NCBI GenBank assembly: GCA_046563655.1
Contig: CM102287.1
Coordinates: 1,178,001-1,242,000 of the forward strand
Reading direction: 5' to 3'
From: Yuukianura sp. NJ FZ-2021
Taxonomy: Eukaryota
DNA length: 64,000 nucleotides
Shown: positions 19,401 to 45,027 of the stretch, one piece after another
Layout: each line of letters opens with the position of its first letter
Numbering within the stretch: position 1 is the stretch's first letter
Notes under the pieces: generated by a model
Databases searched by the model: none
What the model was told of the DNA's origin: nothing
What the model saw: only the letters and a program-made list of their open reading frames with translations
Program-made: the position numbers and the translations under genes

Positions 19401-21211
19401 TCCTGTAGCCCTTTTTATGAGGATTTCAAAAATGTAATTTACTTTCTGTTCATTCTCACACTTGCATGTACATTCTCACGAATTTAAGTCGTTTTGCGTC
19501 AAAATGGTGCTCGGCATTCCCCTGGGTGCCGTATTCCAACCCGTGATAAAATTCGAGGCGGAGCGATTTATCCCGACTTTTAAGTCCGCCCTATCCAGAT
19601 TTAATGGCGATCTATCCACACCAATGAAACTTGGGGTTCTGCAGTACGTTTCATAAGGATTTCAGAAAACTAACTCATTGTCACCCGGCATCGTTCCGCG
19701 CGGAGGTTTTTCGAATGTTTTGTTTTGAAACAAATTTTCATAAATAAAAGCAACGAGATGAGGGACGACACAGCAAGTGAAAGTGGGTTCCTGTAGCACT
19801 TTTTATGAGGATTTCAAAAATATAATTTACTTTCTGTTCATTCTCACATTTGCATGTTCATTCTCACAAATTTAAGTCGTTTTGCGTCAAAATGGTGCTC
19901 GGCATTCCCCTGGGTGCCGTATTCCAACCCCACATAAAATTCGAGGCGGAGCGATTTATCCCGACTTTTAAGTCCGCCCTATCCAGATTTGTATGTATGT
20001 ATGTTTTTCAGGAGGGGGCTAAGCCGAGGCTTAACTCGCACCGATGAGGCGCACTTAGACGGGCCTATTTCAGTAACTCCATTAGGGACATACTGTTTGA
20101 GTTCGGGCTGCCTTTAACCGGTTATCATTTCTTTCACTGGGTATTCAGCAGTCTGAGAGGGGAAGGATACCCACAAACTCCTCCACCTCGAGCTTCTGGC
20201 TTTTCGTATTTAAATTATCTTATTTCTCATAAGACAGACGAATTGCCTCCGCTCATCAACATATTATAATCTTGCGAGGGACTGCTGCCTTGCATACTAT
20301 TACTTGACGCGGCAGGACGACGGATCGAATCCATCTCCCTGCGTTGACTTTTTCATAGGCTTAGCATACAATCTCAGGTAGACAGTGGAAAAGGATGGGA
20401 GCCTTAACCACTGAGCTACTCGCCCGCCTCCTATCCAGATTTAATGGCGATCTATCCACACCAATGAAACTTGGGGTCCTGCAGTACGTTTCATAAGGAT
20501 TTCAGAAAACTAACTCATTTTCACCCGGCATCGTTCCGCGCGGAGGTTTTTCGAATGTTCTGTTTTGAAACAAATTTTCATAAATAAAAGTAACGAGATG
20601 AGGGACGGTACAGCAAGTGAAAGTGGGTTCCTGTAGCACTTTTTATGAGGATTTCAAAAATGTTGTTGCCTTTTACCCAGCATCGTTCCGGAATGCATTT
20701 CTTTTGAATTCTCTGCTTTGAAACATGAATTTTCATAAATAAAGGTAACAAGATGAGGGACGATACAGCAAGTGAAAGTGGGTTCCTGTAGCACTTTTTA
20801 TGAGGATTTCAAAAATGTTGTTGCCTTTTACCCAGCATCGTTCCGGAATGCATTTCTTTTGAATTCTCTGCTTTGAAACATGAATTTTCATAAATAAAGG
20901 TAACAAGATGAGGGACGACACAGCAAGTGAAAGTGGGTTCCTGTAGCACTTTTTATGAGGATTTCAAAAATGTTGTTGCCTTTTACCCAGCATCGTTCCG
21001 GAATGCATTTCTTTTGAATTCTCTGCTTTGAAACATGAATTTTCATAAATAAAGGTAACAAGATGAGGGACGACACAGCAAGTGAAAGTGGGTTCCTGTA
21101 GCCCTTTTTATGAGGATTTCAAAAATATAATTTACTTTCTGTTCATTCTCACATTTGCATGTTCATTCTCACAAATTTAAGTCGTTTTGCGTCAAAATGG
21201 TGCTCGGCATT
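1426..21211 (+). repeat. Satellite DNA array, left block (388-bp unit plus a variable number of 155-bp monomers), interrupted by a SINE
   Basis: Unit spacings of 388, 543, 698 and 853 bp are read from repeated landmarks (e.g. 1875, 2418, 2806, 3504). The copies are nearly identical. Confidence 0.98.
19991..20429 (-). mobile_element. tRNA-derived SINE inserted in the satellite
   Basis: 13-bp TSD CCTATCCAGATTT at 19978-19990 and 20430-20442. On the minus strand there is an A box TAGCTCAGTGG (20418-20408), a B-box-like GGATTCGATCC (20332-20322) and a 3' (CATA)n tail at 19991-20004. Confidence 0.88.
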
Positions 21212-21346
21212 TGATGAGTGAGCTAAGCCACTTCTACCCCGCTTAAGTCTCAAGTCACCCCAGGTATTGTGTGTCGAATTGACTTTTTGACAGAGAATGT
21301 AATACATCTTTATGTCATTCAGCCGTTTCTGGTGTGATGTCAAAAG
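21212..21346 (+). repeat. Left terminal inverted repeat of the Polinton
   Basis: 21212-21283 is the reverse complement of 36312-36376 except for a 7-bp extra TCAAGTC. Imperfect similarity continues to about 135 bp. Confidence 0.93.
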
Positions 21347-21374
21347 GAAAATCACCGCGTCTCCATTTAAACAT

Positions 21375-21692: not shown

Positions 21693-21927
21693 ACCATTGT
21701 TTAATTCAAAGTGAATTTGATATATACTCCGAAATAATCAAAATGTTATTATAAAACAAGGGTTTAAACATAAACGTTTTTAACATTAGAAACTGTTTAC
21801 ATCTTAAAAGCTCAGCTTAAATTCCTTTCCGGTTAGTCAATTGTGCACTTAATAGTGATATTAATCATAGCTCCAAATTTAGCTCTCAGTTATCTTTCTT
21901 AAGTCAAACTGAAAACATCTATCTACA

Positions 21928-22406
21928 ATGCGGCAGAGGTACGTGTTTAATCACGAACATTACTACAACACTTTGAGGGACCAAATTGGCAATGGAATGC
22001 CTGTGTTTCATGGGGTACGTCAAAGAGGGGTGGGATTGGTTACATCCTAGGCGGGATTGCCAAGTACGCATTGCCAATCATCATGAAGTGGATTTTGCCT
22101 CGCGCAAAGGAAGCTGCAGTTAAAACTGTGAGTGGCATTGCGGGAGGACGCCAGTCGGTAAAGAAAGCTTTGAAAGAAAACAGCGTTGGATTTTTGAAGA
22201 ACGTCGGCTCGGATCTTTTGAATTCAGTAGTGGGAAGTCAAACCGGAAACGGTGTTCGAAATAAACAGAAGCGGACGTACACGAAGAGGAAACCCGCGAA
22301 ACTAAGGAAGCAAGTCTCTGCAAACAAGGTTAAGAAATCCAAATCGAAAGTCTCAAAAAACGAAAAGCGAAACCAAATCCAACAAAGACGAAGAGAACCA
22401 AATTAG
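21928..22406 (+). CDS. Polinton small virion protein with amphipathic Gly-rich helix and basic tail (cupiennin/pVI-like); 1-nt frameshift near 22028
   Basis: The ATG at 21928 gives MRQRYVFNHEHYYNTLRDQIGNGMPVFHGVRQRG. The next frame continues GIGYILGGIAKYALP into the 22071 ORF. The QxGxG...QRGxGIG pattern resembles a conserved Maverick gene (recognised from memory). Confidence 0.65.
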
Positions 22407-22419
22407 ATATTTTTGCATA

Positions 22420-23721
22420 ATGTCTTTGCTGCATTCCCGGTCTAAACCGGCTATTCGTGGAGAAGTCGACCTATTTTCAATCCCAGCAACAGATACGACG
22501 TGTGACTACAGTATGTACGAAGAGTATCAGCCAGTTGTGAACGTTCAGGACGCTTCAAACAAAATCGAATTTAAGATTCCTGGGAATAGTAACCATTACC
22601 TGGATTTGACAGACAGCTTCCTGCGGATCAAGCTAAAAGTGACGCAGAAGACCGGAGATAACCTAGGAACGGATTCCACAGTTGGAACTGTGAATTTATT
22701 TATGCATGCCCTCTTCTCACAACTGGACATATATTTTAATGAAAAACTTGTGTCCACAAGCAATAATGGCTACTCATATCGGGCGTACATAGAAACATTG
22801 CTTTGCTACGGAAAAGACTACAAAACCTCCCAGGGTGGATGTGCTTTGTACTATGAAGACACAGTTGGTGGAATTGCAGACTCGACAAACCTAGGATGGG
22901 AGAAACGAAAAAGCTACATCAACGAATCGAAAGACTTGGAGCTAATCGACAAATTGAGATTTAACCTAGCTAATCAACATCGATACATATTGAATGACGT
23001 GAACGTTCGCATTTGTCTCACACGATCTTCCGATGCATTTGCCCTTTTTTCAAAGAAGAAGGGTGAGGATGGAGTAATCAAGTTCTTATCGGCAACATAC
23101 TACATCCGAAAACAACTGCCTTTTCCTAGCATTATATTGGCTCATCAGAGACTTTTAGAAAAAGGCGAAATTGCTCAATACCCATTTAAGTCCACTGAAG
23201 TGAAATACTTTACCATTGCTCAAGGAAATTCGTCTGCCCTCGAAGAAAACCTTTTTGCAAATACTGTGCCAAGTCGTATCATAATTGGATTTGTGGATAG
23301 CTTGGCGTTCAACGGAGATTTCAATTCAAATCCGTTTCGTTTCCACAATTACAACATTAAGTCCATTTCGATTTCAGTCAACAATGTGTCTATACCAATT
23401 AGACCGTTGTCCTTGGACTTTCCAAATAACGAATGGCTTTTGGCATACTATCTTTTATTTACGAGCACAGGAATAGCTGGGCACGATGTTGGACTGTCTT
23501 TTGGGCGAGACGACTACAAAGAGAGCAATGCCCTATTTACATTTGATATTCTTCAACCCACTGGGAACGAGGCACTCCTTCATTTGGAAAAATCTGGGAG
23601 CGTGAAAATTGAAGTTCAGTTTAGCAGGGCGCTAGAAAAATCAGTGCACTGTGTTATTCTGTCTGAACAACAAGGGGTTTTGGAGATTGACAAGTACCGA
23701 CAAGCAGTTGTGGCACAATGA
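22420..23721 (+). CDS. Polinton major capsid protein (double jelly-roll, PY/hexon-like)
   Basis: Intact 433-aa ORF. Motifs EVDLFSIP, YLDLTDS, LFSQLDIYFN, YSYRAYIETLL and FNGDFNSNPFRF match the Maverick major capsid pattern, and the gene lies next to the protease. Confidence 0.85.
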   Translation: MSLLHSRSKPAIRGEVDLFSIPATDTTCDYSMYEEYQPVVNVQDASNKIEFKIPGNSNHYLDLTDSFLRIKLKVTQKTGDNLGTDSTVGTVNLFMHALFSQLDIYFNEKLVSTSNNGYSYRAYIETLLCYGKDYKTSQGGCALYYEDTVGGIADSTNLGWEKRKSYINESKDLELIDKLRFNLANQHRYILNDVNVRICLTRSSDAFALFSKKKGEDGVIKFLSATYYIRKQLPFPSIILAHQRLLEKGEIAQYPFKSTEVKYFTIAQGNSSALEENLFANTVPSRIIIGFVDSLAFNGDFNSNPFRFHNYNIKSISISVNNVSIPIRPLSLDFPNNEWLLAYYLLFTSTGIAGHDVGLSFGRDDYKESNALFTFDILQPTGNEALLHLEKSGSVKIEVQFSRALEKSVHCVILSEQQGVLEIDKYRQAVVAQ

Positions 23722-24268
23722 ATACCACCGAAATCATGGAGATACTGGATAGGAGCATCAACGGATCATACCAAACTGCAGTTCTACCGTCCGACAAATT
23801 AAACGTTATTACTTCGGATCAGTTCGCAGTCGTAGCAAATTCCCAAACTTCCAAGGAACCAGGAATGCATTGGATCGGCATGTTCAAAAAACGAGGAGGT
23901 AGGGAAGTTGAATTCTTCGACAGCTGTGCAATGCCGATTCACTTTTACAATCCTAGCTTTGTAAATTTTCTTTACTCCAAATCCGACGTCATAAGGATGA
24001 GCAGCCTTAGAGTTCAGCCGGAGCATAGCGATGCTTGTGGACAGTTCGCGCTATACTACTTGATACACAGAGTCAAGGGAGAATCATTCGAAAAATTCTG
24101 AGCAGGTTCGACGAATTTGATCTAAATGTAAACGACAACATTGTTAGAGACTTCGCGGCAATTAACTTACATTACGATAATACATGCTTCAGGGGTGACT
24201 CCCAAAACTTAGAAGTAACCAGAATCATTCAGTGTTGTGAGATTTTAGAAGTTCTACTCAACATGTAA
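23718..24268 (+). CDS. Adenain-like (C5 family) cysteine protease; 1-nt frameshift in an A-run at ~24091-24095
   Basis: His (PGMHW), Asp (EFFDS), Gln and Cys (SDACGQF) catalytic pattern. The C-terminus ILSRFDEFDLNVNDNIVRDF continues in another frame. Confidence 0.88.
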
Positions 24269-24335
24269 GTTTCGGTTCCTACAAGTGTATATATTTAACG
24301 TGACCAAATTGTACATTCATTCTAATCTTATTAAA

Positions 24336-25265
24336 ATGAAATCTCAAGTTGCGAAAGCATACAAGAACATCGGAAGTTCTACTTATTTGGGGGGCAAGAA
24401 ACATTTAAGTAAGTTAAACGGTATTTCTGATTCTACAGCATTGAAATTCTTACAAACTCAAGACTCATACACGCGCCATAAGAGTCGGAGGTGCAAATTT
24501 CGCAGGAGACGGGTAACATCACCAGGTATAAACTACCTATGGCAGGCTGATATTGTTTTTTTGCCAAAGTACACTGAAGAAAACGATGGCTATTCTTGTC
24601 TTTTAACCGCAATTGATGTCCTGTCAAAGTATGCATTTGCTGTGCCAATGAAATCAAAGAAAACTAGCGAAGTTATTCAAGCATTTAAGCGGATCATCTC
24701 TTCAGGGAAAGGAAAACCTGTAACACTAGAATGCGATCAAGGTTTAGAATTTTGGTCAGCTACATTCCAGAAGTGGGCAAAGTCTCTTGGCATATTGATG
24801 TACCATAACTTTTCAGACTTTGGTTCATCCGTTATTGAACGGTTTAACCGAACAATATGCACAGCTATCTCAAGACATCTTACTGAAAGTGGTCAAGCGA
24901 GATACATTGAAGCCCTGCCTTTTCTTATAAAGACTTATAACAGTAAAATACATTCGCGAACGAAAGTGGCGCCATGCGACGTTAACAAATACAATGAAAT
25001 GGACGTATGGTTGGAATCTTATAAGGACTTGTATTCAAAACCTAAATCAAAAGCTACTCTTAAACTGTACGACCGCGTTCGCCTAGATAAAACGAAACAC
25101 ATATTTGGCAAAGGTTATTGGCCTGCTTTTACGAGCGAAATTTTCGAAGTTTGTGAAGTCATCAATTCCATTCCTGTGACGTATCGTGTCAGGGATCTCT
25201 CTGGTGAGCAAATTTCTGGCATCTATTACAGTCAAGACCTCAGCAAGATAAGTTTAAAAGTGTAA
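24336..25265 (+). CDS. Retroviral-like (rve) DDE integrase of the Polinton
   Basis: WQADIVFL, LECDQGLEF and SVIERFNRTI give the D-D-E triad. YNSKIHSRTKVAP is also present. The first ATG is at 24336. Confidence 0.95.
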   Translation: MKSQVAKAYKNIGSSTYLGGKKHLSKLNGISDSTALKFLQTQDSYTRHKSRRCKFRRRRVTSPGINYLWQADIVFLPKYTEENDGYSCLLTAIDVLSKYAFAVPMKSKKTSEVIQAFKRIISSGKGKPVTLECDQGLEFWSATFQKWAKSLGILMYHNFSDFGSSVIERFNRTICTAISRHLTESGQARYIEALPFLIKTYNSKIHSRTKVAPCDVNKYNEMDVWLESYKDLYSKPKSKATLKLYDRVRLDKTKHIFGKGYWPAFTSEIFEVCEVINSIPVTYRVRDLSGEQISGIYYSQDLSKISLKV

Positions 25266-25266
25266 A

Positions 25267-26013
25267 ATGGGATTCTATATTACATTACCGTCGAACGGCT
25301 CACGTTATTTTTCTGACAACCGAACCAGTAACTACAGGATTAAACTTCCATCCAAAATAAAACTTGAGCCTTCCTTATACGAAGTCGGGCTTACTGAGTT
25401 GACTTATGTGTGCTCCATAAAAACCCTAACCGGAGCTGAGAAAGACAACCTCATTGAGTATAATGCGGCGAAGACTGCCGGGAAAATAGTGCTTCCTTTA
25501 CTTCATTACAGTACCGTGGAGCATTTAGTTCACATAATCAACGCATCTTTTATAAAGCACAGCGTCCCTTCCAACTTGAAGTACTATGAAACAAAGTGTC
25601 GTGTTATCCTGGAAGTAGAAGCTGGATTTAGTATCGAAATAAGTGAGAAACTCTCCTACATTTTGGGATTTAATGGTACGCTTGAATTCAATTCAAATCA
25701 GCAAAATACTTACTTGATAGCCGATTCTCCACCGGATATACTCGGTGGGCGATATCACATGTTTCTATACTGTGACATAATAGAGTCTCAAATCGTTGGA
25801 TCCTCTCTTGTGCCTCTGCTTCGTATGGTAAACATAATTGGAAACGAAGGACAAGCAGTCACTCAAACTTTTGCTCATCCGTTTTATCTGCCGATTTCAA
25901 GGAGCGAGTTTGACATCATCTCTATTGTACTGTGTGACGAATTTGGGGAGGAATTACAAATTGACAAAGGTCAAGTGACTTTAACTCTACATTTTAAGAA
26001 GATATCAACCTAA
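25267..26013 (+). CDS. Polinton minor capsid protein (PX/penton-like)
   Basis: Intact 248-aa ORF. The N-terminal FYITLPSN...N...LP..I.L...YEVGL.E and C-terminal FLYCDIIESQIVG...PLLR...TLHF patterns are typical of this Maverick gene. Confidence 0.75.
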   Translation: MGFYITLPSNGSRYFSDNRTSNYRIKLPSKIKLEPSLYEVGLTELTYVCSIKTLTGAEKDNLIEYNAAKTAGKIVLPLLHYSTVEHLVHIINASFIKHSVPSNLKYYETKCRVILEVEAGFSIEISEKLSYILGFNGTLEFNSNQQNTYLIADSPPDILGGRYHMFLYCDIIESQIVGSSLVPLLRMVNIIGNEGQAVTQTFAHPFYLPISRSEFDIISIVLCDEFGEELQIDKGQVTLTLHFKKIST

Positions 26014-26740
26014 TGGAGAACCATACGTACGATTTCGATCAAATTCAACTCAAACATCCATTCACATTTATTGTTGCAGGCGGTACGATGTCTGGAAAAA
26101 CAACATTTGTTTGCAAGATTATTCAAAACCTCGACATGATGGTGTCACCTAGAATCGATGACGTAATTGTATTCTATAAGGTATATCAAAGCGGCTATGA
26201 CGTCATGAAGTCAATGGACCATAGAGTTAGATGCATGGAGGGATTAAAATTGGACGAAGTCTACGCTAATAATACATTGCTAGTCATCGATGACCAAATG
26301 GCAGATTCATTAAAAGACAAATCTGTCCAAGAACTCTTCACTTGCGGTGTTCATCATAGGTAAGGCAAAAATCACTTTGCAAATGCACTACCTCGATAAA
26401 TTTGCATAGAATTGACAAAACGTTTTTGAATTCCAGGTCAATATCCGTCATCTTCCTTTCTCAAAATTTGCTGCCGCAAGGAAAATATGCCAGGGATATT
26501 CGTCTCAACACACATTACATGACGATTTGCAAGACCCCCTCATTTCCATCACAAGTGATGTACCTCAGTAGACAACTCAATCCAAGGAAGCCGAGTGCAA
26601 TTTTAAACGCTTACGAGGAGGCAACTCGCCAGCCGTATTCATACTTGTTCTTAAATTTACACCCTAGTTGCCACGATAATTTACGAATACAGTCAGGAAT
26701 TCTTCCAAAGGAAGAACATATTATTTACTTACCAAGTTAA
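26013..26740 (+). CDS. FtsK/HerA-type (A32-like) packaging ATPase with one intron (26360-26436)
   Basis: Walker A GGTMSGKT and Walker B LLVIDD. Removing the 77-bp GTAAG...TTCCAG intron restores HHR-SISVIFLSQNL in frame. Confidence 0.93.
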
Positions 26741-26754
26741 GTGTTTCTTTTACA

Positions 26755-27101
26755 ATGACAAACCGTTTAGTTAGAAACAAAACGTTCCTCGAAGAAGTTA
26801 AAAAGTGTAAAGCTCCGCGCCGAAAAAGTTAATAAAAAAGGCTTCAAAAGACAACATTGAAGCATTGTCCGAAATTGCTCTAAACACGTTAATTGGTAAT
26901 GTGCCATTAACTAAACAACACAAACATAAACTCAAACGGCACAGGAGTTGTATCAGGAATCTTGCAAAGAAGTTCTCTATTAAAAAGAAGAAGGAATTCT
27001 TAATACAAAAAGGTGGGTTTCTTCCACTGTTGGTGACACCAGCTCTGTCGATACTTGGCGGTCTTGCAGCAAACGCATTAACTCACCTTGTGGGTTTATA
27101 A
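26755..27101 (+). CDS. Small basic Polinton protein (putative core/virion protein); 1-nt frameshift in an A-run at ~26823-26827
   Basis: The ATG at 26755 (MTNRLVRNKTFLEEVKKC) joins LIKKASKDNIEALSEIALNTLIGNVPL...QKGGFLPLL. The protein is Lys-rich with a hydrophobic C-terminus. Confidence 0.7.
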
Positions 27102-27953
27102 TGTCCAAAAAAATGAAACTGATACCGCATCTGGAGTACGAAAAACTTATTGCCATTCAACGAAGCTCCTCAGCTTTTACATAAATCTGCATCAGTTCAA
27201 CTATTCCAAAGGAAGCAAGCAGCAGCAACAAACATTCTAAAATGGAATTCTATTTCCGATGACATCAAATTAGCCTTATTCAATAGTATGGTAAAGGGAC
27301 TGCACGCAAACTTTTCGGCTCTAATACACACTCCACTTCAAGTTGAAGTTTCTAAACCGGGAAAGCTTGTTCCATCACCCAAAAGTACAAAGACCAACCA
27401 CGAAGAGAATATAAAACGCGATGCAGGAACGACCGTAGACCAGGCTTTGTACAACACTCACCTAGCTAAGTTCCTTCCAAAAAAGTACCAGCTACCTGGC
27501 ATGAAAATAATGCACGTTCTTTCTACGTCTGCATTTAATGACATTTCCTGGGATGAGTCCGGCCAAGTTTCGTATAAGGGTGTACCAAGGAATGGTGCAA
27601 ATATTATTGAACTCTTGGCATACGTCCTAAAGCCTCCGGCGAAGGTCATTCCACCAAAGGGAATTCGTACATTTATTTACATTTTAAAGAAAGTGCATTT
27701 ACAAAAGGAGTTGCTTGGAATTCATATTCGGAACAAGTTAAATCTGAGTACGGTAGCACTACTTGCCCAAAATACTCCAGCCACTAACGAATCGCTAGAA
27801 GAGGGCGAGGAAGAGGAGGAGGAACACGACGACGAAGAGGAGGAGGGAGACGGAATGGACGATTACGAAGCGGATGCTCCCACTAGTGGTAATACATCTG
27901 ATGAGCAATATCAAACGCCAGTTGCCACAGCCTCTGCCTGGAGCATCTTCTAA
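27101..27953 (+). CDS. Polinton protein of unknown function with acidic tail; probable frameshift near 27140-27150
   Basis: The ATG at 27101 overlaps the upstream stop (TAATG) and gives MSKKMKLIP. The main 267-aa ORF is in another frame and contains ISWDESGQVSYKG...NIIELL. Confidence 0.65.
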
Positions 27954-27984
27954 TTAGTCAGTTATTGGAGTTAATAGTACAAAC

Positions 27985-28669
27985 ATGTCAGAACTAGTTG
28001 CAAAAGTAGACGTAATCAACATGCCTCTAGTAGTATTAACGAACAACGGTCCGGATTTCGAACAGTACTCAACCACTGAAAGTAGGCTAGCCAGCTTCGA
28101 TTCCTCTACTAAGGATTGCTTCCTCCTGCTGCAACACTAGCAAACGCAGGATTCTTCTTCACAGAGTTTGAGGATGCTGTAATTTGTTTTTACTGTGGGC
28201 TGTGTCTGAGTTCTTGGAGTCAACACGATTCACCATGGTTGGAACACCGAATTCATTCTCCAAACTGTGCATATCTCATTCTAAAGCACCCAGTCACAAA
28301 CGTAAGCTACAAAATGTTTGGAAGCAAAATTATGACAGTAAATATATATTTATGATAAATTTTGAAAAATGTAGGTTTCGTCAACAACGGATCTTTGTGA
28401 GATGGATTCCGGAAAGTGTATAGAGACAGGTAAAGGAATCATTAAAGTGCAAGTTTGAACTTATGTGTGAACTCATAATTATTTTTTCTTATATAGAATT
28501 GAACAATTTGAAGTCTATTATCAGGTGCAAGATTTGCATGATTCGCCAAGTCTCCTATATGTACGCTCCTTGCTGTCATTTGGCAACATGTTTGGAATGC
28601 TGTACCACCCAATCAATATGCCCCATATGTCGTTCCGAAATAACGCTGATAATTAAGGTCTTCGTTTAA
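27985..28669 (+). CDS. Inhibitor of apoptosis (BIR + RING) with two introns (28302-28374, 28430-28496) and a 1-nt frameshift at ~28112
   Basis: BIR motif RLASF...LANAGFFF...DAVICFYC...W...DSPWLEH...SPNC. C3HC4 RING CKIC...PCCHLATCLEC...CPICR. The GT-AG introns splice in frame, and AATAAA lies at 28688. Confidence 0.88.
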
Positions 28670-28702
28670 AATACGTCACATATAAGTAATAAAGCATTAG
28701 AC

Positions 28703-31700
28703 TTAGTTTTTATTAATCCTGTAATGCCCGTACGGTAAGGTTGTAATGCCGTCGTTTAAAATGTAGCGTTTGGAATCAAATGCATGTAGTGCAGCTTTAG
28801 TTGTTCTGATATTGTAAATTTTATGCTTGTACGACCGCATTGATTTCAGAGTGCACGCTAGAATTTTTTGGTCTAATAAAACTTTCTCCAGCATTTCAAA
28901 TGATATTGACTTTTGCTGAACTCTTTGCGGGATTCCCTTCATGGCAGTTTTTTTGAAAGAAGCCGCATGGTAATCTTCACCTACAAAGCAGTAGGACTTG
29001 GGGGCGAGTCCCACAAACTTGGTTAGTATTCGTCCCTTCACGTCGTCTTTCATTTTTCCAGTGACTCCAGCATTCGCCATTGAATAAAGCGGGTGTGATT
29101 TTGGCAAGTTGCTGGTGTCAAATAGTTCTAAGTCTTCTTCGAGGTCTTTGTATAGGTCTGTGGTGCAAATTGAGTATGCCAAGCTGTCAGTATCAGTCAT
29201 GAGCAGCGTCGCATTTTGGCCCCATTTGGTCTTGACGTAGTCATAGTGGAAACGTGCCATATGTAATTTGCTTAACTCTAAAACGCAGAATCCTGTGTAA
29301 ATTGCTTTGTTAAGGGTGACGCATGACTTCTGCATTCTAAAGCAGGCCAGATTGTCACCCAAAATATCATGCGACAAAAATTGGAATTTTGACAACAATC
29401 TGGAAGCGGTTTGACGGTTGTTCACTACTCTGATGTTCATGCGCTTCCTGACAGATTCCATTCCTTTTCCAAATACAGCATTGACACATAACTTGTAGAA
29501 CATCCTATCAAATTCATTTTTGGCATTGCGCCTTTGGGAGCTGTTGAACTCAACGTATGTTTTAAGCCATGGTTTTTGCCGGAATGCCAAAATTCTGTGA
29601 ATCTTCTGAATCAAAAGTCCACGATTCACGTAGAATTGTAAGTTTGCCACATGACAGATGTAATTCTTTCGGTGCTGGAAATGGCACACAAGCTTTTCTT
29701 GCAATTCCATGTAATTGATTGGAAGACAGTCAAGCAACTTTCTTTGGAAGCTGCTAAAATTCTCTGAAGACACAGTTGTCTTTTCACAAGCCAGTGGATA
29801 GCATTGGTGTGAGTCGTGAAGTTCTTCTGTATAGTTCAAAAGGTTAAGAAAATCATGAAAAATTAACAAAAGTAGACAGTAATAGTTCATGAAAGTACAA
29901 TACCAGGATAATGAAGATCTGCTTCTATAATGTACCCAATGTCGTCGTCCAAGTGAAAGTCATCAATATTGAATTCTGCCACCAATGCTAAAATTAAAGC
30001 AGATGAGTATATTAAAATGTAAAGTTACTCAACATTTCACTTGCTTAACGCTACCTTGATTTAAAAAATAAAATTGTCAACTGGAAGCCTGCTCTCCATT
30101 GCCTTTCCGTACAGGTTAACCATGTCCCACAAAGCAATATACATCTGGTTTGCATCTCCAGGCTTTCCACTATAGTCCTTCATGTATTTGTTGTGTGCCT
30201 CTGCATAACGATGTGAGATTTGGGAAATTCCTCCTGAACAATGGTTTAGGAGTTAGTCAGTGTTAAATTAAACATTATTAGAGGAAATACTCAAATACCT
30301 CTCATTCCTTTCTCCAGAAAAATATACATCTCAATGTCAGTTATGAGTTCCAGCTTTACGTTTGACATTTTTAAAGCAGCATCCCACGCCAGCCCAGGTA
30401 GCGAAAAGTAGTGAGCCGGGTCAAGTCCAAAATTCTTCAATGCCATTTTTCGAAACTCTTCAAACACGCAAGCGAGTAACAACGCATCGGTTAGTAGGTA
30501 AAGATCATGGTATTCCCCTAAGGATTTAAGACCGAACGTCTTGAAAATATGCAGAGCGTATTCATAGTCCGCATCGGTAATGTGGCAACTAGTAAGTGTG
30601 TTGTAGAACTTTGGCTTCGCAGGTAAATTTTCTTCATCAAAACGTTGCCAAGAGTCGATGTAGTCGTAAGGGTATACACCTTTTCTTGTAAGCAGTTCAT
30701 ATTTGTTTCCAAACACCTGCTTCATGATTGCAAATTTATCTTCTCCTTGCTCCTTCAAATTGCTGACGAGTTCACTTAATGAGGAATTGAGAAATTGAAG
30801 GCTATCTATAAACCGCAAGGAGTCAACTGCCACCGACATGTATTTCTCCGTGTTAGTTGGAATTACGGATATTTTCCTAGCACTTATGTCATTCAGTCCT
30901 TTGATGATCAAGTGATGATCATATCCTTGAAAGTTGTGGATCTGCGTGAATATAAAAAATTTTGAATTTTAATTTAATTGAAACAATTAATGAAAACCTT
31001 TAATGAAACAATTACAACGCATATTGCAAACGTATGTTGTTCTAACCACAACAGGTAAAATTTCCTCTTGTTGGAATTGTAAATTACATCTCTTGTGAGC
31101 GGCCCCTCGAAATGTACCTAATAGTAATTCGTTTAATTTTTCAATAAGATAACAACCTTTACCTTTGAATTTATCAGCGTTTTTATTTTGTTACCCGTCA
31201 AATGACAATGATCTCTGCACTTGTCTCCATAAAATTCAAATGCTCCACCACAAATGTGACAACTCTCAGCATTCTGAAATATCTCCTCCTCTCCATGTTT
31301 CATTTTAATGGGTACTTTCAGTTTGTATATCTCCATGACACTGCTCGCAATTTTTAAACAATCTTCAAGAAAAATCTTGATGCTGTCCTTTCCTCTGTAA
31401 ACACGGTAGGAGATCAACTCGCCGGTATTTTTGATTAAAGCATATGGGAATCCGGAGGGGATATGACGTTTCTCTTTAGTGATGGACGACTCATTTGAAG
31501 AATCTTGAATGGGTTTCAATATTGATTCCAAATCAGCGTACATAACATAGCCTGCTTCCATTTTGTTTGAATAGTTTTCGAAACACATCACTGGTGGACT
31601 ACCATTTTCGACTTTCGGCATCTTCACCTTTTGAAAAACAAACTTTTCACACTCAGCTTTATGCCTGAGAAGTAAGCACATCTTCTCGCATTTGCTTTCA

Positions 31701-32894
31701 CGACAGGTTTTTGAACACTGCTTAATTCTTTGTAAACAATTGTAAGTAACGTCGTTTGCAGTTTTGTTTTCCCAACAATCTGTTCATGTTCCGAATTCCA
31801 ATGAAATGCCAATTGTTTCCAGTTTTGTCACGCACAAGCATTAAATTTGCTGTTTGAGAAGTTCTGTAGTTTTTCTCAGAAATTCGTACCGGCAAAATTC
31901 CATCAAAGCGAGAATATTCAAAAACATTCACTGCAACGTCGTTTTTTTCTTCGAATTTGCATATTTGTTTCAATGAAACCGGATATTCAATGCAGTCAAA
32001 GTCATGTAGATGAGCGTACTGCTGATAAGTTGAGGCACGCGAAGTCTCCTTATCAGGACGGTACAAGGAACTGAGCACAGCCCACTTAAAACAGCGATTT
32101 CCTCTCGTCATAATATTTACAGTCGCCTTTTTGGATTCCAAACATTTTGGAAGTCGCTTCCACTGACCTCCAGTGAATGGCTTGAATTTCCCAACTCTGA
32201 TGTCTGATCCGCGGATTTTTGACAACTGCCACCCCGAACCATAAACTTCAAAGATGTTAATTGACTGGTCAATTTTTGATACACACATTTTCATAAACCG
32301 CACAAGACTTTGCTTGGGGTTCAACACGTTAAGCATGTTCGAGTTTATCATTTTCTCTTGGTATTCAAAAATTTCGTTTCCATCTTTCGATTGACATAAA
32401 TAGCGTTTAAACTGTACCTTCACAGAAAGTTGGCACTTGATAGTTTTCAACTGGACCAGACATTCTTTGATAATGTTTTCGATTTGATTTCCAAATTTCA
32501 GAAAATACAAATTGAGGCAGGGGACCGACTTTTTCATCAGATGACGGTATGTCCGGACGTACCCTTGAAATGCCTGAATTTTTTTGAAAGGAAGTATTCC
32601 AGTTTCACTGTTCTTAGAAATTGACCTCCCAATTTGGATCTTTCGACTTATAGCCTTTGCAATTTGAGAATGCAGAACTCTTGAATGCACAACTGCAGAA
32701 TGGTTTTCTAGACGTAAATGTGAGTTAAATGTTTTTCGACAAAGAACGCACCGATAATTTGGAATTTCACGTACACTTTTGTTTCTTGCACACTTCCTCC
32801 GGCACTTAGAAACGTGTTTAAGGTAAGCAAGCTTTCGAAGTTTCTGTTTGCCACAAACACCACAAACAGAAGAGCTTGGTTGGATGTGATCCAT
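28703..32894 (-). CDS. Protein-primed family B DNA polymerase with N-terminal zinc-finger-like motifs, five introns and two frameshifts (~31745, ~30070)
   Basis: Motifs YADLES, DHCHLTG-TFRGAAH, IHNFQGYD, RFIDSLQF, WDMVNLYG, KLCVNAVFGK and MTDTDS. GT-AG introns lie at 31118-31194, 30942-31046, 30234-30298, 29988-30054 and 29827-29903. Confidence 0.93.
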
Positions 32895-33581
32895 GTCTTA
32901 AAACAAGTTTTGAATTAATCAGCAGATGAATTTAGATAAGTACTCCATCTTTCAAATTACATGTGTTTCAAGTTCTAGAGTCTTTCAACAATTGTCCAAA
33001 AGGTGGCGCTGATAGTCACTTTGTAGCAATATTGCAGAGCAAAATTTTGAAGTGTATTTTAGAATGAACAAGTTTGAGATGCCAAATACAAGGCTTCAAA
33101 AAGTAGATGAATAAAGGAAAAAACGCTGCGTTTAAGCCTTCCCAGAATGAAATTTTTCCTTAAACTAGGGTACTTAAGTCCAACTGTATTCCCTTAAGTA
33201 CCTAAATGAATTTGGCCAGTTTCTGTTTGACTTCTATGAACTCGTTTGATCCTGAGATTGAAAGCGAACATTAAGTATTATCGATGTGTCAGGTAAAACA
33301 AAGTCCAAAATCACTCAATTTTTGTTAAATTGCAGTTTTCAAAACTAAAAATTTGCTGAATCCTCAATTCTCACGAATTGAAGGACAATGGGAGATTCCG
33401 TGTCATATTGTTGCTAAGGCATAAACGTTAGATACTTTAATTTGTCATGATGAAGGCTTGCCGCTCCCTAAGTTTCAGTCATCGTTCCAACTCAGTTACA
33501 GAAACAACTCCTAAGCAGCGAACGAGTTGCATCAATCACCACCATCGTTCCATTTTGCAAAGTTATCTGTGTCAACTAACT

Positions 33582-35093
33582 ATGATCCAAAGGTTGAAAA
33601 GGGGTAAGCCCTCATTTTACAATTGTTTCATTGTTTCAATTGTTGCAATAGCTATTTTGTAAATATTCAAATGTGCTGTTCATTTTGAAAAACTTACATT
33701 TAATTTACTTTTTTGATTAATTTGTTCTTAGCGAACACCGTGGACCTAGAGGAAGAAGTTCCATCCAGAACCGAAAAAATGGTAGCCGAAATGAGTCCAA
33801 ATTCGAATGACCTAAGGAATGCAGAGTTAGCCACTTCAAGGGTTAACCCCTTAGCTCGTTCTCAGCAGTATCAGGAGTCCGTAAAGGAAGCTATGCGAAA
33901 GAAAGCATCAGTGGAGCGTGAGGTAAGATTTACAACTCTTATTTAAAAAGTTGCGCAAAATTCCATAATTAACTTTTGATTTATTATTTAAGGAATCTGA
34001 TCCGGAATTTTTGCTGGACGATGATAAACTCAACAATGATGAAGATGACGATGAAGAAGAAGAAGAAGAAGAAGAAGAAGATAGCTTTGAAGAGGATGAT
34101 AGTGAAGAGAGCGAAAAGGGTATGGACGAGGAAGAAGTCAAACTCATCGCCATCGAAAAAAAGATTGCGCCAAAGAAGCCAACATTTGTCAAGGTAAGAA
34201 CAAAATAAAGACGAGGTTGTATAAAATAACTATCTTTGTTTTGTCCTTATTAGAATTTGACTCAAGAGCTTGCTGCCGCTGCGCCAAAGACACAGATGAT
34301 CGTCAAGGTTGCACAACCAAACAAACGGCGCAACCAAATTGCTGCTAAATCATCTACAAAGCAGCGACTTGGAAAGGTATAAAGATCATGTTTCGAATTG
34401 AAGTTATATTTACAAGCAACTATCGTATAATTTAAAATATGTTATTTAAAACTTTACAGGTTACATATGGAATTGAATCAGCAACTAAACCGGACGAAAA
34501 TACAACAACCGTTTCCAAGGCAATCTATCTCCGACCACAAGGACGAACCGCCAAAAAAGCAGCAAAACGCCCGATTGGGATGCGTTCGAAACCGGCGGCA
34601 AGTCACATTTAAACGGAATGACGGTTCAAAGTAAATTGATTGATTCTTAACTTTTAGAAGGCTCCAACCCATTCGGTAGCAGAAACCGAGGATTCAGAGG
34701 GTTCGATGACATACGAGCCAGCCAAGAAGAAGAAGAAAGATTCCTCCAAAGTAAGAACAAAATTACCTACTACTGGAAATTTTTTCAACTACTTAAGGAC
34801 TGCAACTTAACAATTATTATTATAATTATTTTTCACAGGAGCTGGTACTGGATTTCGCTCCGTCGGATCATGGTGGTGGCGCAGACAAGGACGTCAGGGA
34901 AGGCGACGTCCATATCGGCCAGGGAATACATGTGAAATGGCACAAGTTCAAAGGGAAGTACTATATTATGGTACGTCACTTTGCCAACGGGACTGCCGAC
35001 GGAAGACGTGGCATCAACATCGATATGCAGTATCTGCCCAATTTGAAAAAAGCTGTGGACATGGCTTACAAATGTTACGTTGACAGCTCTTAA
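33582..35093 (+). CDS. Multi-exon acidic/basic protein with C-terminal PC4 (Sub1)-like ssDNA-binding domain; 5' end uncertain
   Basis: Introns at 33604-33731, 33923-33992, 34194-34253, 34377-34459, 34598-34657 (GC-AG) and 34751-34838 give one open frame. The last exon reads VHIGQGIHVKWHKFKGKYYIMVRHF...RRGINIDMQYLPNL. The protein has a poly-D/E tract and an NLS-like PAKKKKK, and AATAAA lies at 35131. Confidence 0.72.
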
Positions 35094-35099
35094 AACGTT

Positions 35100-36086: not shown

Positions 36087-36238
36087 TTTGTAAGATTGAA
36101 TGTTGCGAATTCTGAACTCTAAAACTAATTCCCTAAACTCTAATTCTAAACTAAACAAAGACACAGACTGCTATATGTGCACTTATAGACAAAGTGCATT
36201 TTTTTTCCCTCAGCCAGAAGGAACAAAGTAGTACAATG

Positions 36239-36376
36239 TCTTTTCGTCATCACATCAGAAACGGCTGAATGACATGAAGATCTATTACATTCTCTGCCGA
36301 AAAGACATCGTGTCAATTCGACACACAATACCTGGGGTGACTTAAGCGGGGTAGAAGTGGCTTAGCTCACTCATCA
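36239..36376 (-). repeat. Right terminal inverted repeat of the Polinton
   Basis: Ends ...CTTAGCTCACTCATCA, the reverse complement of the left end. Confidence 0.93.
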
Positions 36377-39300
36377 GGCATTCCCCTGGGTGCCGTATTC
36401 CAACCCCAGATAAAATTCGAGGCGGAGCGATTTATCCCGACTTTTAAGTCCGCCCTATCCAGATTTAATGGCGATCTATCCACACCAATGAAACTTGGGG
36501 TCCTGCAGTACGTTTCATAAGGATTTCAGCAAACTAACTCATTTTCACCCGGCATCGTTCCGCGCGGAGGTTTTTCGAATGTTCTGTTTTGAAACAAATT
36601 TTCATAAATAAAAGTAACGAGATGAGGGACGACACAGCAAGTGAAAGTGGGTTCCTGTAGCACTTTTTATGAGGATTTCAAATATGTTGTTGCCTTTTAC
36701 CCAGCATCGTTCCGGAATGCATTTCTTTTGAATTCTCTGCTTTGAAACATGAATTTTCATAAATATAGGTAACAAGATGAGGGACGACACAGCAAGTGAA
36801 AGTGGGTTCCTGTAGCACTTTTTATGAGGATTTCAAAAATGTAGTTGACTTTTACCCAGCATCGTTCCGGAATGCATTTCTTTTGAATTCTCTGCTTTGA
36901 AACATGAATTTTCATAAATAAAGGTAACAAGATGAGGGACGACACAGCAAGTGAAAGTGGGTTCCTGTAGCACTTTTTATGAGGATTTCAAAAATGTAGT
37001 TGACTTTTACCCAGCATCGTTCCGGAATGCATTTCTTTTGAATTCTCTGTTTTGAAACATGAATTTTCATAAATAAAGGTAACAAGATGAGGGACGATAC
37101 AGCAAGTGAAAGTGGGTTCCTGTAGCACTTTTTATGAGGATTTCAAAAATGTTGTTGCCTTTTACCCAGCATCGTTCCGGAATGCATTTCTTTTGAATTC
37201 TCTGTTTTGAAACATGAATTTTCATAAATATAGGTAACAAGATGAGGGACGATACAGCAAGTGAAAGTGGGTTCCTGTAGCCCTTTTGATGAGGATTTCA
37301 AAAATATAATTTACTTTCTGTTCATTCTCACATTTGCATGTTCATTCTCACAAATTTAAGTCGTTTTGCGTCAAAATGGTGCTCGGCATTCCCCTGGGTG
37401 CCGTATTCCAACCCCAGACAAAATTCGAGGCGGAGCGATTTATCCCGACTTTTAAGTCCGCCCTATCCAGATTTAATGGCGATCTATCCACACCAATGAA
37501 ACTTGGGGTCCTGCAGTACGTTTCATAAGGATTTCAGAAAACTAACTCATTTTCACCCGGCATCGTTCCGCGCGGAGGTTTTTCGAATGTTCTGTTTTGA
37601 AACAAATTTTCATAAATAAAAGTGACGAGATGAGGGACGATACAGCAAGTGAAAGTGGGTTCCTGTAGCACTTTTTATGAGGATTTCAAAAATGTTGTTG
37701 CCTTTTACCCAGCATCGTTCCGGAATGCATTTCTTTTGAATTCTCTGCTTTGAAACATGAATTTTCATAAATAAAGGTAACAAGATGAGGGACGACACAG
37801 CAAGTGAAAGTGGGTTCCTGTAGCCCTTTTTATGAGGATTTCAAAAATATAATTTACTTTCTGTTCATTCTCACATTTGCATGTTCATTCTCACAAATTT
37901 AAGTCGTTTTGCGTCAAAATGGTGCTCGGCATTCCCCTGGGTGCCGTATTCCAACCCCAGATAAAATTCGAGGCGGAGCGATTTATCCCGACTTTTAAGT
38001 CCGCCCTATCCAGATTTAATGGCGATCTATCCACACCAATGAAACTTGGGGTCCTGCAGTACGTTTCATAAGGATTTCAGCAAACTAACTCATTTTCACC
38101 CGGCATCGTTCCGCGCGGAGGTTTTTCGAATGTTCTGTTTTGAAACAAATTTTCATAAATAAAAGTAACGAGATGAGGGACGACACAGCAAGTGAAAGTG
38201 GGTTCCTGTAGCACTTTTTATGAGGATTTCAAATATGTTGTTGCCTTTTACCCAGCATCGTTCCGGAATGCATTTCTTTTGAATTCTCTGCTTTGAAACA
38301 TGAATTTTCATAAATATAGGTAACAAGATGAGGGACGACACAGCAAGTGAAAGTGGGTTCCTGTAGCACTTTTTATGAGGATTTCAAAAATGTAGTTGAC
38401 TTTTACCCAGCATCGTTCCGGAATGCATTTCTTTTGAATTCTCTGCTTTGAAACATGAATTTTCATAAATAAAGGTAACAAGATGAGGGACGACACAGCA
38501 AGTGAAAGTGGGTTCCTGTAGCACTTTTTATGAGGATTTCAAAAATGTAGTTGACTTTTACCCAGCATCGTTCCGGAATGCATTTCTTTTGAATTCTCTG
38601 TTTTGAAACATGAATTTTCATAAATAAAGGTAACAAGATGAGGGACGATACAGCAAGTGAAAGTGGGTTCCTGTAGCACTTTTTATGAGGATTTCAAAAA
38701 TGTTGTTGCCTTTTACCCAGCATCGTTCCGGAATGCATTTCTTTTGAATTCTCTGTTTTGAAACATGAATTTTCATAAATATAGGTAACAAGATGAGGGA
38801 CGATACAGCAAGTGAAAGTGGGTTCCTGTAGCCCTTTTGATGAGGATTTCAAAAATATAATTTACTTTCTGTTCATTCTCACATTTGCATGTTCATTCTC
38901 ACAAATTTAAGTCGTTTTGCGTCAAAATGGTGCTCGGCATTCCCCTGGGTGCCGTATTCCAACCCCAGACAAAATTCGAGGCGGAGCGATTTATCCCGAC
39001 TTTTAAGTCCGCCCTATCCAGATTTAATGGCGATCTATCCACACCAATGAAACTTGGGGTCCTGCAGTACGTTTCATAAGGATTTCAGAAAACTAACTCA
39101 TTTTCACCCGGCATCGTTCCGCGCGGAGGTTTTTCGAATGTTCTGTTTTGAAACAAATTTTCATAAATAAAAGTGACGAGATGAGGGACGATACAGCAAG
39201 TGAAAGTGGGTTCCTGTAGCACTTTTTATGAGGATTTCAAAAATGTTGTTGCCTTTTACCCAGCATCGTTCCGGAATGCATTTCTTTTGAATTCTCTGCT

Positions 39301-44954: not shown

Positions 44955-45027
44955 GAACCGGTAGCTCAATTGGTAGAGAGCATCTTCCCGGATTGAAGAG
45001 GTGTGGGTTCGAGTCCCACTCGGTTCC
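44955..45027 (+). ncRNA. tRNA-like cloverleaf with A/B boxes in the 5' LTR
   Basis: Stems GAACCGG/TCGGTTC, GCTC/GAGC, TCTTC/GAAGA and GTGGG/CCCAC, with T-loop TTCGAGT. A T-run follows. Confidence 0.8.

Follow-up and report, generated by a model that had tools for sequence, protein, structure and literature searches.

Vertebrate Mavericks, or Polintons, are modular elements with terminal inverted repeats (TIRs), a 6-bp target duplication, a protein-primed family B DNA polymerase (pPolB), an rve integrase, capsid genes, a protease and an ATPase, as described in the sections of Barreat & Katzourakis (2021, PMC8097293) drawn on here, and the element reported below has the same TIRs, target duplication, pPolB, integrase and ATPase, together with putative capsid and protease genes. 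It also resembles the adintoviruses, or animal Polinton-like viruses, in being a probably animal-associated combination of pPolB, integrase and putative capsid genes with accessory genes. In the portions of Starrett et al. (2021, PMC8502044) used for this comparison, spliceosomal introns in coding genes are not mentioned and the only intron passage concerns group II maturases. In protist hosts, dinoflagellate eupolintoviral proviruses carry introners, which are multi-copy transposon-derived introns, and these proviruses share with our element the condition of an integrated Polinton-like element with introns of the spliceosomal type (Gozashti et al. 2025, PMC12166617, in the excerpts consulted).

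We analysed a stretch of 64,000 nucleotides, hereafter the window. It very probably contains a complete and recently integrated Polinton of a clade in which short, AT-rich introns of the U2 type split the pPolB, ATPase, IAP and PC4-like genes.

The element and its intronless genes

The element is a genuine Polinton/Maverick. It is complete, spans 15,165 bp (21212-36376) within a 155/388-bp satellite, and combines TIRs and a 6-bp target duplication with pPolB, an rve integrase and an FtsK/A32-type ATPase. In the related loci L003 and L004 the genes follow one another as in the element, PolB> <IAP <ORFb <ORFa <ATPase. Its ends are as follows.

21206..21211, no strand: left target site duplication, GGCATT, the same six letters at both flanks
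21212..21348, no strand: left TIR; its core arm (21212-21249) is 100% complementary to 36339-36376
36239..36376, no strand: right TIR; the match extends from the core arms out to 21348/36239
36377..36382, no strand: right target site duplication, GGCATT, mirroring the left copy

The presence of an IAP gene suggests an animal host, and the host genome is probably that of an invertebrate. The genes without introns include the structural genes and the integrase.

21929..22406, forward: small basic protein gene at the left end; no intron seen, frame disturbed in the window copy
22420..23721, forward: putative major capsid protein (MCP) gene, one open frame, collinear with L006 over residues 2-433
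23718..24268, forward: putative maturation protease gene, intronless, with a frame break near 24090 in the window copy
24336..25265, forward: rve-type integrase gene, one open frame, collinear with L006 and others
25267..26013, forward: penton-like (minor capsid) gene, one open frame, with tblastn matches in L004, L006 and L015
26757..27101, forward: ORFa, small and conserved, with a frame break near 26822 in the window copy
27102..27953, forward: ORFb, conserved, with an acidic tail and a frame break near 27163 in the window copy

The integrase was clearly recognized by Pfam (PF00665, E 4.3e-16, with 59.5 bits where the cut-off is 32.6). The MCP gave a weak match below the cut-off (DJR-like_dom, E 0.012) and is 22-47% identical to its counterpart in 10 Polinton-like loci. 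The protease, which in a Polinton would be a cysteine protease of the adenain/Ulp1 type, has no Pfam match; it lies between the MCP and integrase genes, and tblastn found the counterpart gene in 13 loci. The penton-like label is our assumption from the position of the gene. The initial annotation had described the capsid, protease and integrase genes as apparently intronless, and the MCP, penton-like and integrase genes are indeed single open frames collinear with those of relatives. The protease gene likewise contains no intron and is collinear with its relatives, but its frame is broken in the window copy.

In total, the window copy has eight frame breaks, which the initial annotation had overlooked and which lie in PolB, IAP, the protease, the two small ORFs and the left-end gene. 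They are absent from read-derived contigs of the same sample. Because these contigs differ in length exactly at the breaks (in the left-end gene at 22026 and 22354), the breaks may be either assembly errors or decay of the window copy. As assembled, this copy would be incapable of making PolB, IAP or protease.

Introns in the polymerase and ATPase genes

PolB introns were called with our own spliced protein-to-DNA alignment, using an uninterrupted homologue of 1264 aa (P0001) and eight further queries.

28703..32894, reverse: pPolB gene, six exons, with frame breaks near 31743 and an in-frame stop at 30063-30061
31118..31194, reverse: PolB intron 1 (HLTG/TFRG), 77 nt, phase 1; position common to L001 and L005
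30942..31046, reverse: PolB intron 2 (LPVV/IHN), 105 nt, phase 0, two in-frame stops; position common to L001, L005 and L008
30234..30298, reverse: PolB intron 3 (MRG/GIS), 65 nt, phase 1; position common to L001, L003 and L005, and in L008 with GC-AG
29988..30054, reverse: PolB intron 4, 67 nt, phase 1; position common to five of five relatives
29827..29903, reverse: PolB intron 5 (YP/EELHD), 77 nt, phase 1; position common to L001, L002, L003 and L008, but 7 codons away in L005

A search with PolB exon 7 gave 1192 relatives at E<=0.001; many have a length of about 1200 aa, and some are named DNA-directed DNA polymerase in their source. The match of PolB to Pfam DNA_pol_B_2 is weak (E 0.001-0.004). 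Five of the nine queries placed all five introns at identical coordinates and the other four recovered four of them. The one intron ever missed was 30054-29988; it adjoins a frame break directly upstream, for which reason intron 4 is the least secure in the window. Twelve uninterrupted PolBs aligned by tblastn were collinear over every junction. The five interruptions claimed for this gene were thus reproduced with GT..AG borders by alignment of uninterrupted homologues, and the motifs rejoined at introns 1, 2, 3 and 5 read as the initial annotation had written them. The introns are poorer in GC than the exons (0.26 vs 0.40).

26013..26740, forward: A32/FtsK-type packaging ATPase gene, two exons, with Pfam Pox_A32 and FtsK_SpoIIIE matches on exon 1
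26360..26436, forward: ATPase intron, GTAAGG..CAG, 77 nt, phase 2, inside the HH(R/K)x(I/V)S motif

Homologues of the ATPase occur in 15 loci, and its Pfam matches are modest (Pox_A32 at 23.0 bits, just above the cut-off of 22.8; FtsK_SpoIIIE at E 1.7e-4). The single intron proposed for it, 26360-26436, was placed identically with five of five uninterrupted references, and in 13 of the 14 loci holding both halves these abut with exactly one codon between them. Removing the introns restores the frame in PolB and in the ATPase, collinear with the uninterrupted homologues.

Comparison with related elements showed that the PolB positions are held in common by five close relatives, all metagenomic and 64-70% identical in amino acids (L001, L002, L003, L005 and L008). 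At 18 of the 19 callable positions the intron lies at the same residue and in the same phase, once with GC-AG borders, and the nineteenth is shifted by 7 codons. L003 is the only close relative with any ATPase, and its sequence stops within exon 2 and does not reach the site of the intron. The relatives' PolB introns differ in length (50-65 nt) and can no longer be aligned to those of the window (identity 0.45-0.62, compared with 0.59-0.62 for shuffled controls). In PolB exon 7, dN is 0.23-0.25 and the proportion of synonymous differences (pS) is saturated at 0.84-0.88; the exons are under purifying selection.

It is conceivable that the interruptions are not introns but insertions specific to this copy, or products of its decay into a pseudogene. 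The eight frame breaks would fit this, and so would the weak PolB donor sites (GTAACA, GTTAGA, GTATTT, GTAGCG and GTATTG), which agree poorly with the usual GTRAGT pattern. However, such an origin is contradicted by the sharing of positions and phases with five relatives whose proteins are about 30% different. The selection on the exons also speaks against it, as do the borders, every one of which is GT..AG, or GC..AG in one relative. Furthermore, the contigs of runs X1-X3 span all intron sites and retain the introns, and sibling copies are 39 nt shorter inside PolB intron 2 and differ by three letters inside the ATPase intron. We therefore consider copy-specific decay very improbable. One X2 contig joins 30227 to 30295, skipping 67 nt close to PolB intron 3 without coinciding with its borders, with only 20 letters on its shorter side; we read it as a divergent copy, although it might be something else.

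Introns of the IAP and PC4-like genes and the total count

The two accessory genes were also found to be split.

27985..28669, forward: IAP-like gene (BIR and RING), three exons, with a frame break at about 28111-28121 in the window copy
28302..28374, forward: IAP intron 1, 73 nt, phase 0; recurs at the same residue in L002, with 73 nt, and in L003, with 89 nt
28430..28496, forward: IAP intron 2, 67 nt, phase 1; same residue in L002 (80 nt)
33447..35093, forward: PC4-like gene with acidic and basic tracts and a C-terminal PC4/Sub1-like ssDNA-binding domain; last exon 34839-35093; five or six introns
33604..33731, forward: PC4-like gene intron 1, 128 nt, phase 1, placed by open-frame logic alone
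33923..33992, forward: PC4-like gene intron 2, 70 nt, phase 0, GTAAGA donor
34194..34253, forward: PC4-like gene intron 3, 60 nt, phase 0, three in-frame stops
34377..34657, forward: PC4-like gene, ambiguous stretch that is either a single 281-nt intron or a pair of introns flanking a middle exon
34751..34838, forward: PC4-like gene last intron, 88 nt, phase 0

The IAP-like gene is of the BIR-RING type, with a BIR match (E 1.1e-18) and a C-terminal RING match (zf-C3HC4_3, E 7.2e-9); the first 20 BIR profile positions lie upstream of the frame break. Both introns proposed for it were found, and both recur in L002.

By profile and predicted fold, the C-terminal domain of the PC4-like gene is a PC4/Sub1-like ssDNA-binding domain. 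The window copy scores 18.7 bits with PF02229, under the cut-off of 25, but a match was obtained for eight of the 12 family members, at best with E 2.2e-8. An AF2 model of the domain (pLDDT 85.7) has four strands and a helix, and its top Foldseek matches are MoSub1 and human PC4 (probability 1.00, TM 0.57-0.72, E 6e-3 to 3e-2). In the relative P0241, an ORF passes from intron-like residues into the same first residue of the last exon. An uninterrupted full-length homologue of this gene was sought and none was found. The initial annotation had counted six introns here. Four are clear, but the count of six could not be reproduced, because 220 different open-frame exon chains are possible in 34377-34657.

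For the same reason the total in the element is 13-14. Of the initial figure of at least 14, eight introns are confirmed against relatives (five in PolB, one in the ATPase and two in the IAP gene). Among these eight, seven shift the frame and the eighth, of 105 nt, contains two in-frame stops. Borders are GT..AG in 12 of 12 window introns compared and in 17 of 17 of the relatives' introns compared, to which the GC-AG intron of L008 is added. The segments appear to be spliceosomal introns of the U2 (GT-AG) type. Being short and AT-rich, they might alternatively be removed from the DNA itself, as happens with internal eliminated sequences in ciliates, or splice themselves. The probability of this is negligible in our opinion. 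The borders are GT..AG and not TA..TA, none of the contigs joins exactly across any segment, and the IAP gene suggests an animal host. Rfam finds two tRNAs as the sole matches in the window, and 60-128 nt is below the size of group I or II introns. Nor do the introns resemble introners; the best pairwise identity among the 12 of the window is 0.66, compared with 0.62 for shuffles.

Origin of the introns and comparison with known systems

The five PolB introns seem to be confined to one clade. The sister locus L004 (54% identity, same gene order) gave no PolB intron call over the part that it holds (P0001 residues 682-1262), and its ATPase is uninterrupted. Among 75 more distant loci, none had a call at any of the five positions in the same phase. 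Since L004 and the more distant loci are without these introns, gain within the lineage, as the initial annotation had suggested, is the better reading, with the direction of change argued from this distribution. The rarity of such introns is lowered by candidates elsewhere in PolB at 11 other metagenomic loci, at P0001 residues 347, 470, 472, 561, 667, 673, 745 and 887. Five of them (L032, L033, L036, L037 and L052) share residue 745, and the others include L047/L049, L018, L055 and L016. As in the window, these are GT..AG interruptions that shift the frame or contain stops; unlike in the window, there are one to three per locus, at other positions, in polymerases 36-41% identical to ours. 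The general statement that descriptions of Polintons usually give the core genes as uninterrupted agrees with the parts of PMC8097293 and PMC10120064 considered here, but is softened by these loci.

It could be argued that the introns are older than the clade, were present in a wider group and later disappeared from L004 and other lineages. The candidates at the 11 other loci would fit this, since they show introns outside the clade as well. However, the introns of the other loci lie at different positions, and none of the five positions occurs in any of the loci compared outside the clade. L004 would need at least four losses (three in PolB and one in the ATPase) by recombination with reverse-transcribed copies, and an element that exists only as DNA makes no such copies. 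Ancestral introns are thus improbable.

We suggest that the clade's common ancestor gained the five PolB introns and that they have kept their positions since, while the structural genes and the integrase would have stayed free of introns. Polintons are copied through DNA alone, so that an intron arising in an integrated element passes to all of its daughters. For the split genes to function, they would have to be transcribed in the host nucleus and their introns removed by its spliceosome.

The introns may have been kept because they are useful, either in the timing of a spliced replication and accessory module against an unspliced structural module or in evading host surveillance of intronless foreign genes; the initial annotation had proposed a possible splicing control of this kind, of replication and packaging against structural genes. 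They occur in PolB, ATPase, IAP and PC4-like genes and not in those for MCP, penton-like protein, protease and integrase, and their positions were held while synonymous sites became saturated. Adenoviruses splice the coding regions of Pol, pTP and IVa2, which also favours this idea. However, introns are not easily lost from an element without an RNA stage, so retention is expected even without benefit, and the ATPase, a packaging gene and not an early one, does not follow a clean early/late line. We regard a useful role as rather unlikely.

Introns in core genes are unusual for Polintons, and gene callers that ignore introns fragment such elements. The adenoviruses have a related gene set, with pPolB, an adenain-type protease, a double jelly-roll capsid, an A32/IVa2-type ATPase and a separate ssDNA-binding protein, to which the putative capsid and protease genes of the element would correspond. 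Their nuclear transcription and their spliced polymerase and IVa2 messages would likewise match what is predicted for the element. They differ in being free viruses with leader splicing, no integrase and an ssDNA-binding protein that is not PC4-like. Compared with the vertebrate Mavericks as treated in the sections of PMC8097293 cited above, the window element has five PolB introns and one ATPase intron, plus an IAP gene and a PC4-like gene. From the adintoviruses, as far as the cited portions of PMC8502044 describe them, it differs in being integrated, with a target duplication. Its introns differ from the introners described in the excerpts of PMC12166617 in showing no mutual similarity beyond shuffled controls, and their positions are old and conserved.

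Structure and state of the inserted element

The window was mostly tandem satellite with units of 155 bp and 388 bp, within which we found an insert of 15,165 bp at 21212-36376. The arms of its inverted repeat, at 21212-21249 and 36339-36376, were perfectly complementary, and the repeat extended to 21348 and 36239. With GGCATT at both flanks, the insert is a complete Polinton/Maverick carrying the hallmark 6-bp target duplication. Along its plus strand come, in order, genes for a small basic protein, a capsid protein (433 aa, with a weak double-jelly-roll match), a protease-like protein, an integrase (rve PF00665, E 4.3e-16), a penton-like protein and an A32/FtsK-type ATPase, then two small conserved ORFs (ORFa and ORFb) and the gene of a BIR-RING IAP. 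The protein-primed family B polymerase (PolB) lies on the minus strand and is followed by a plus-strand gene ending in a PC4-like domain. A scan of viral contigs gave 135 pattern matches and zero relatives.

Several other structures were seen in and around the insert. Just inside the left repeat, a near-perfect palindrome occupies 21369-21618, with 114-nt arms that are 92% complementary and 22 nt between them. The satellite is interrupted at 44840-45385 by 1.8 copies, 100% identical, of a 301-bp unit, each copy holding a tRNA-like gene (44955-45027 and 45256-45328); an Rfam search of the whole window returned two tRNAs and nothing else. At the GC-richer right end (61482-64000, minus), long ORFs read from translation resemble reverse transcriptase, RNase H and integrase, and are probably those of an LTR retrotransposon.

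As assembled, the copy of the element is not open, and its frames are broken at the following places.

Frame breaks in the assembled copy (window positions)
near 31743, minus strand: break in PolB
30063-30061, minus strand: in-frame stop in PolB
~28111-28121, plus strand: break in the IAP gene
near 24090, plus strand: break in the protease gene
ORFa, ORFb and the left-end gene: disturbed

Contigs matching the element were found in three DNA-type sequencing runs from one sample (X1-X3). They had 0-20 other letters per 0.6-3 kb relative to the window, and may share its source sample, in which case they are not independent of it. Substitutions were few, and the contigs differed in length at 22026, 22354, 24090, 26822, 27163, 28121, 30062 and 31743, where the frames of the window break; these eight places were 8 of the 12 length differences listed, among 24. 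Because the contigs differ there and because the IAP frame of the relatives continues unshifted across the site of its break, the breaks belong to this copy or its assembly and not to the family. They look like indel errors of the assembly or the marks of a decaying copy.

All introns described below were retained in the X1-X3 contigs, with internal differences in two of them (39 nt in the second PolB intron and 3 nt in the ATPase intron). No exact join across an intron was present among the contigs of the runs. A weak joint, 30227 to 30295, with 20 letters on its shorter side, falls near the third PolB intron and off its borders. One contig from X1 and one from a fourth run labelled organism B (X4) join 22885 to 34808, with about 30 other letters between. 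These contigs represent a derivative with an internal deletion, in which the left end is retained through the beginning of the capsid gene and the right end is retained from the PC4-like gene's last intron onward. In part of the capsid gene (22599-23436), 24 of the 27 copy differences listed, from 40 of 828 entries, were at third codon positions, a pattern that points to purifying selection between the diverged copies of that sample.

Introns of the polymerase, ATPase, IAP and PC4-like genes

For PolB we used 12 uninterrupted homologues of about 1200 aa, at most 45% identical, taken from the best 120 of 1192 matches. With tblastn they matched the window in five collinear pieces, whose query coordinates abut where the frame changes. 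A spliced protein-to-DNA aligner, written for this analysis and allowing GT..AG introns in three phases, frameshifts and affine gaps, was then used with P0001, an uninterrupted homologue of 1264 aa. It gave five introns with the same borders as the reading by eye.

Introns placed in the element (window positions)
31194-31118, minus strand: PolB, first intron
31046-30942, minus strand: PolB, second intron
30298-30234, minus strand: PolB, third intron
30054-29988, minus strand: PolB, fourth intron
29903-29827, minus strand: PolB, fifth intron
26360-26436, plus strand: ATPase intron, phase 2
28302-28374, plus strand: IAP, first intron
28430-28496, plus strand: IAP, second intron
33604-33731, plus strand: PC4-like gene
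33923-33992, plus strand: PC4-like gene
34194-34253, plus strand: PC4-like gene
34751-34838, plus strand: PC4-like gene, last intron

Four of the five PolB introns have lengths that shift the frame, and the remaining one, of 105 nt, has two in-frame stops. Their GC content was 0.26, compared to 0.40 in the exons. Eight additional PolB queries were aligned; four recovered all five introns and four recovered four of the five, placing an in-frame insertion instead of the intron at 30054-29988, which adjoins a frame break. The aligner sometimes also called a 43-nt "intron" at 31737-31695, which we attributed to the frame break near 31743 and rejected as artefactual.

The ATPase intron lies inside the motif HH(R/K)x(I/V)S, and all five uninterrupted references agree on it. 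In 13 of the 14 loci holding both halves of this ORF, the halves are read in a single unbroken frame and are separated by just one codon, namely the codon that the intron splits. Without the two IAP introns, the BIR domain and the RING would not be joined in one protein. Among the related metagenomic loci, L002 has introns at the same two IAP residues and L003 at the first.

In the PC4-like gene, the four introns have clear borders and leave the frame open. The initial annotation, whose observation was largely right, had counted at least 14 introns in the element, six of them here. The total is 13 or 14 rather than at least 14, since the middle of this gene (34377-34657) has 220 open exon chains, the simplest being a single 281-nt intron, and the attempt to place a sixth intron failed. 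Two more introns may have to be added from a possible small basic-protein gene at 35195-36086 (minus), read by eye and without homology support as three exons with GT..AG introns of about 85 and about 520 nt. Two near-palindromic motifs rich in GCGC, TGCGCTTGCGCAC and TGCGCATGCGCAC, lie within the longer of these candidates.

The last exon of the PC4-like gene (34839-35093) scored 18.7 bits against Pfam PC4, below the cut-off of 25. The assignment is nevertheless supported by its family, its predicted model and the structural matches. A search of 1.84 billion representatives gave 15 relatives, most of 64-95 aa, and 8 of the 12 aligned members match PC4 (best E 2.2e-8). The model has four strands and a helix (pLDDT 85.7), with MoSub1 and human PC4 as its best structural matches (probability 1.00, TM 0.57-0.72). 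The single relative that a word search gave, P0241, is 61% identical; its ORF of 90 aa passes from six intron-like residues into the same first exon residue. A single-stranded DNA-binding protein of this type, encoded beside a protein-primed polymerase, would be in keeping with a part in replication by strand displacement. In X4, a 2002-nt contig holds 33804-35200 of this gene, introns included, at a depth of about 550 and with 31 other letters; it diverges upstream of 33804, and the remainder of the element has a depth of 0-15 in that run.

Intron positions among related elements

One metagenome scan gave 80 PolB loci, the closest five being 64-70% identical to the element. The comparison of intron positions across related elements proposed by the initial annotation was made with the aligner and by inspection, and in 18 of 19 callable places an intron was found at the same P0001 residue and in the same phase.

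PolB intron positions shared with the window in the five closest loci (shared of callable)
L001: 5 of 5
L002: 2 of 2
L003: 3 of 3
L005: 4 of 5
L008: 4 of 4, two by eye, one of them with a GC donor

The GC donor (GAG|GCAAGT) belongs to the third PolB intron of L008 (731-787). Compared with the other elements, the fifth intron of L005 (1492-1543) is shifted downstream by seven codons, as intron sliding or replacement might produce. Introns of the relatives were 50-65 nt long and 0.45-0.62 identical to those of the window, within the range of shuffled controls. In the last PolB exon, dN was 0.23-0.25, while pS was saturated at 0.84-0.88. The intron positions have thus lasted through a long divergence in which the protein stayed under purifying selection. 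As far as is evident, these genes could yield working proteins only if the segments were removed from their RNA.

In a large protein collection, the clade was represented solely by fragments, 268-339 aa long and beginning some 40 residues inside the last exon. When shorter proteins were searched, nine closer relatives emerged (P0121-P0129, 51-71% identity), of which P0121, P0122, P0123 and P0127 share their starting methionine, about 40 residues inside the last PolB exon of the window. Such a shared start would be expected from a prokaryotic gene caller if an intron lay just upstream.

A sister element that is 54% identical (L004) has the same gene order, IAP included. It gave one intron call in the IAP gene and zero over P0001 residues 682-1262, and its ATPase is uninterrupted. 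In all, 16 of the 80 loci gave one or more GT..AG calls that either shift the frame or contain a stop, and five of these are the close relatives. The calls in the other 11 are at different positions (residue 745 in five loci; 667, 561, 472, 887, 347, 673 and 470 in others), and in the 75 loci other than the close relatives no call falls on any one of the window's five positions in the same phase. Lineage-specific gain, as initially put forward, is supported by positions that the close relatives share. Since the loci outside the clade, L004 included, have no calls at these positions, gain in the ancestor of the clade appears the simpler reading.

Introns in Polinton-like PolB genes, as judged from these candidate calls, are probably not confined to this clade. 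The candidate at residue 745, common to L032, L033, L036, L037 and L052, is 105-111 nt long and in phase 1; candidates elsewhere in PolB were seen in L047, L049, L018, L055 and L016. Twelve further aligner calls in distant loci were in frame and open, and were counted as insertions, not introns.

Maintenance of the introns and comparison with known elements

Since a Polinton copies itself as DNA, an intron gained in an integrated copy would pass to all its descendants, and there would be no reverse-transcription step for its loss. Because DNA-only copying gives no easy route of loss, retention is expected with or without benefit. Expression of the intron-bearing genes would then require transcription in the nucleus and splicing by the host spliceosome. 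It is also conceivable, though we consider it unlikely, that the introns are a strategy of the element tying expression of pPolB, the PC4-like protein, the IAP and the ATPase to the host spliceosome. Such dependence would either separate their timing from that of the capsid, protease and integrase genes, which are unspliced, or make their transcripts resemble those of host genes to a small-RNA system that surveys foreign DNA lacking introns. If it were so, the five positions held amid synonymous saturation would reflect selection.

Conserved introns in pPolB and the ATPase would mean that nuclear transcription of the lineage is of long standing and that it depends on host splicing. This bears on lifestyle, namely nuclear transposons or viruses as against cytoplasmic virophage-like agents. 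Because surveys of Polintons and endogenous viruses often use intron-blind tools, assuming that these elements lack introns, elements of the clade get fragmented or scored as degraded by such gene calling. The shared positions provide a simple marker of the clade. They also allow the gain of introns by a DNA-only mobile element to be placed in order relative to its relatives, which is rarely possible, with IAP introns in the clade and its sister and core-gene introns in the clade only.

According to the initial annotation, Polinton core genes are usually described as uninterrupted. This matches the passages available of two studies, in which intact vertebrate Mavericks have "eight conserved and intronless ORFs", with introns absent, "in agreement with ... 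Kapitonov and Jurka (2006)" (Barreat & Katzourakis 2021, PMC8097293), and endogenous viruses "do not contain introns", the rationale given in the methods for prokaryotic gene callers (Bellas et al. 2023, PMC10120064). The 11 other PolB loci with candidate introns weaken the generalization. In Starrett et al. 2021 (PMC8502044), Krupovic et al. 2014, Yutin et al. 2013 and Jeong et al. 2023, such introns as are mentioned at all are self-splicing or group II introns. The exact phrases on introns in Polintons that we looked for did not occur in the main texts of the literature searched; earlier records of intron-bearing invertebrate or nematode Polintons may exist, including in Repbase. Dinoflagellate eupolintoviral proviruses carry introners, according to Gozashti et al. 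2025 (PMC12166617). The introns of the window, which in an introner test had no mutual similarity beyond shuffles, appear unlike these.
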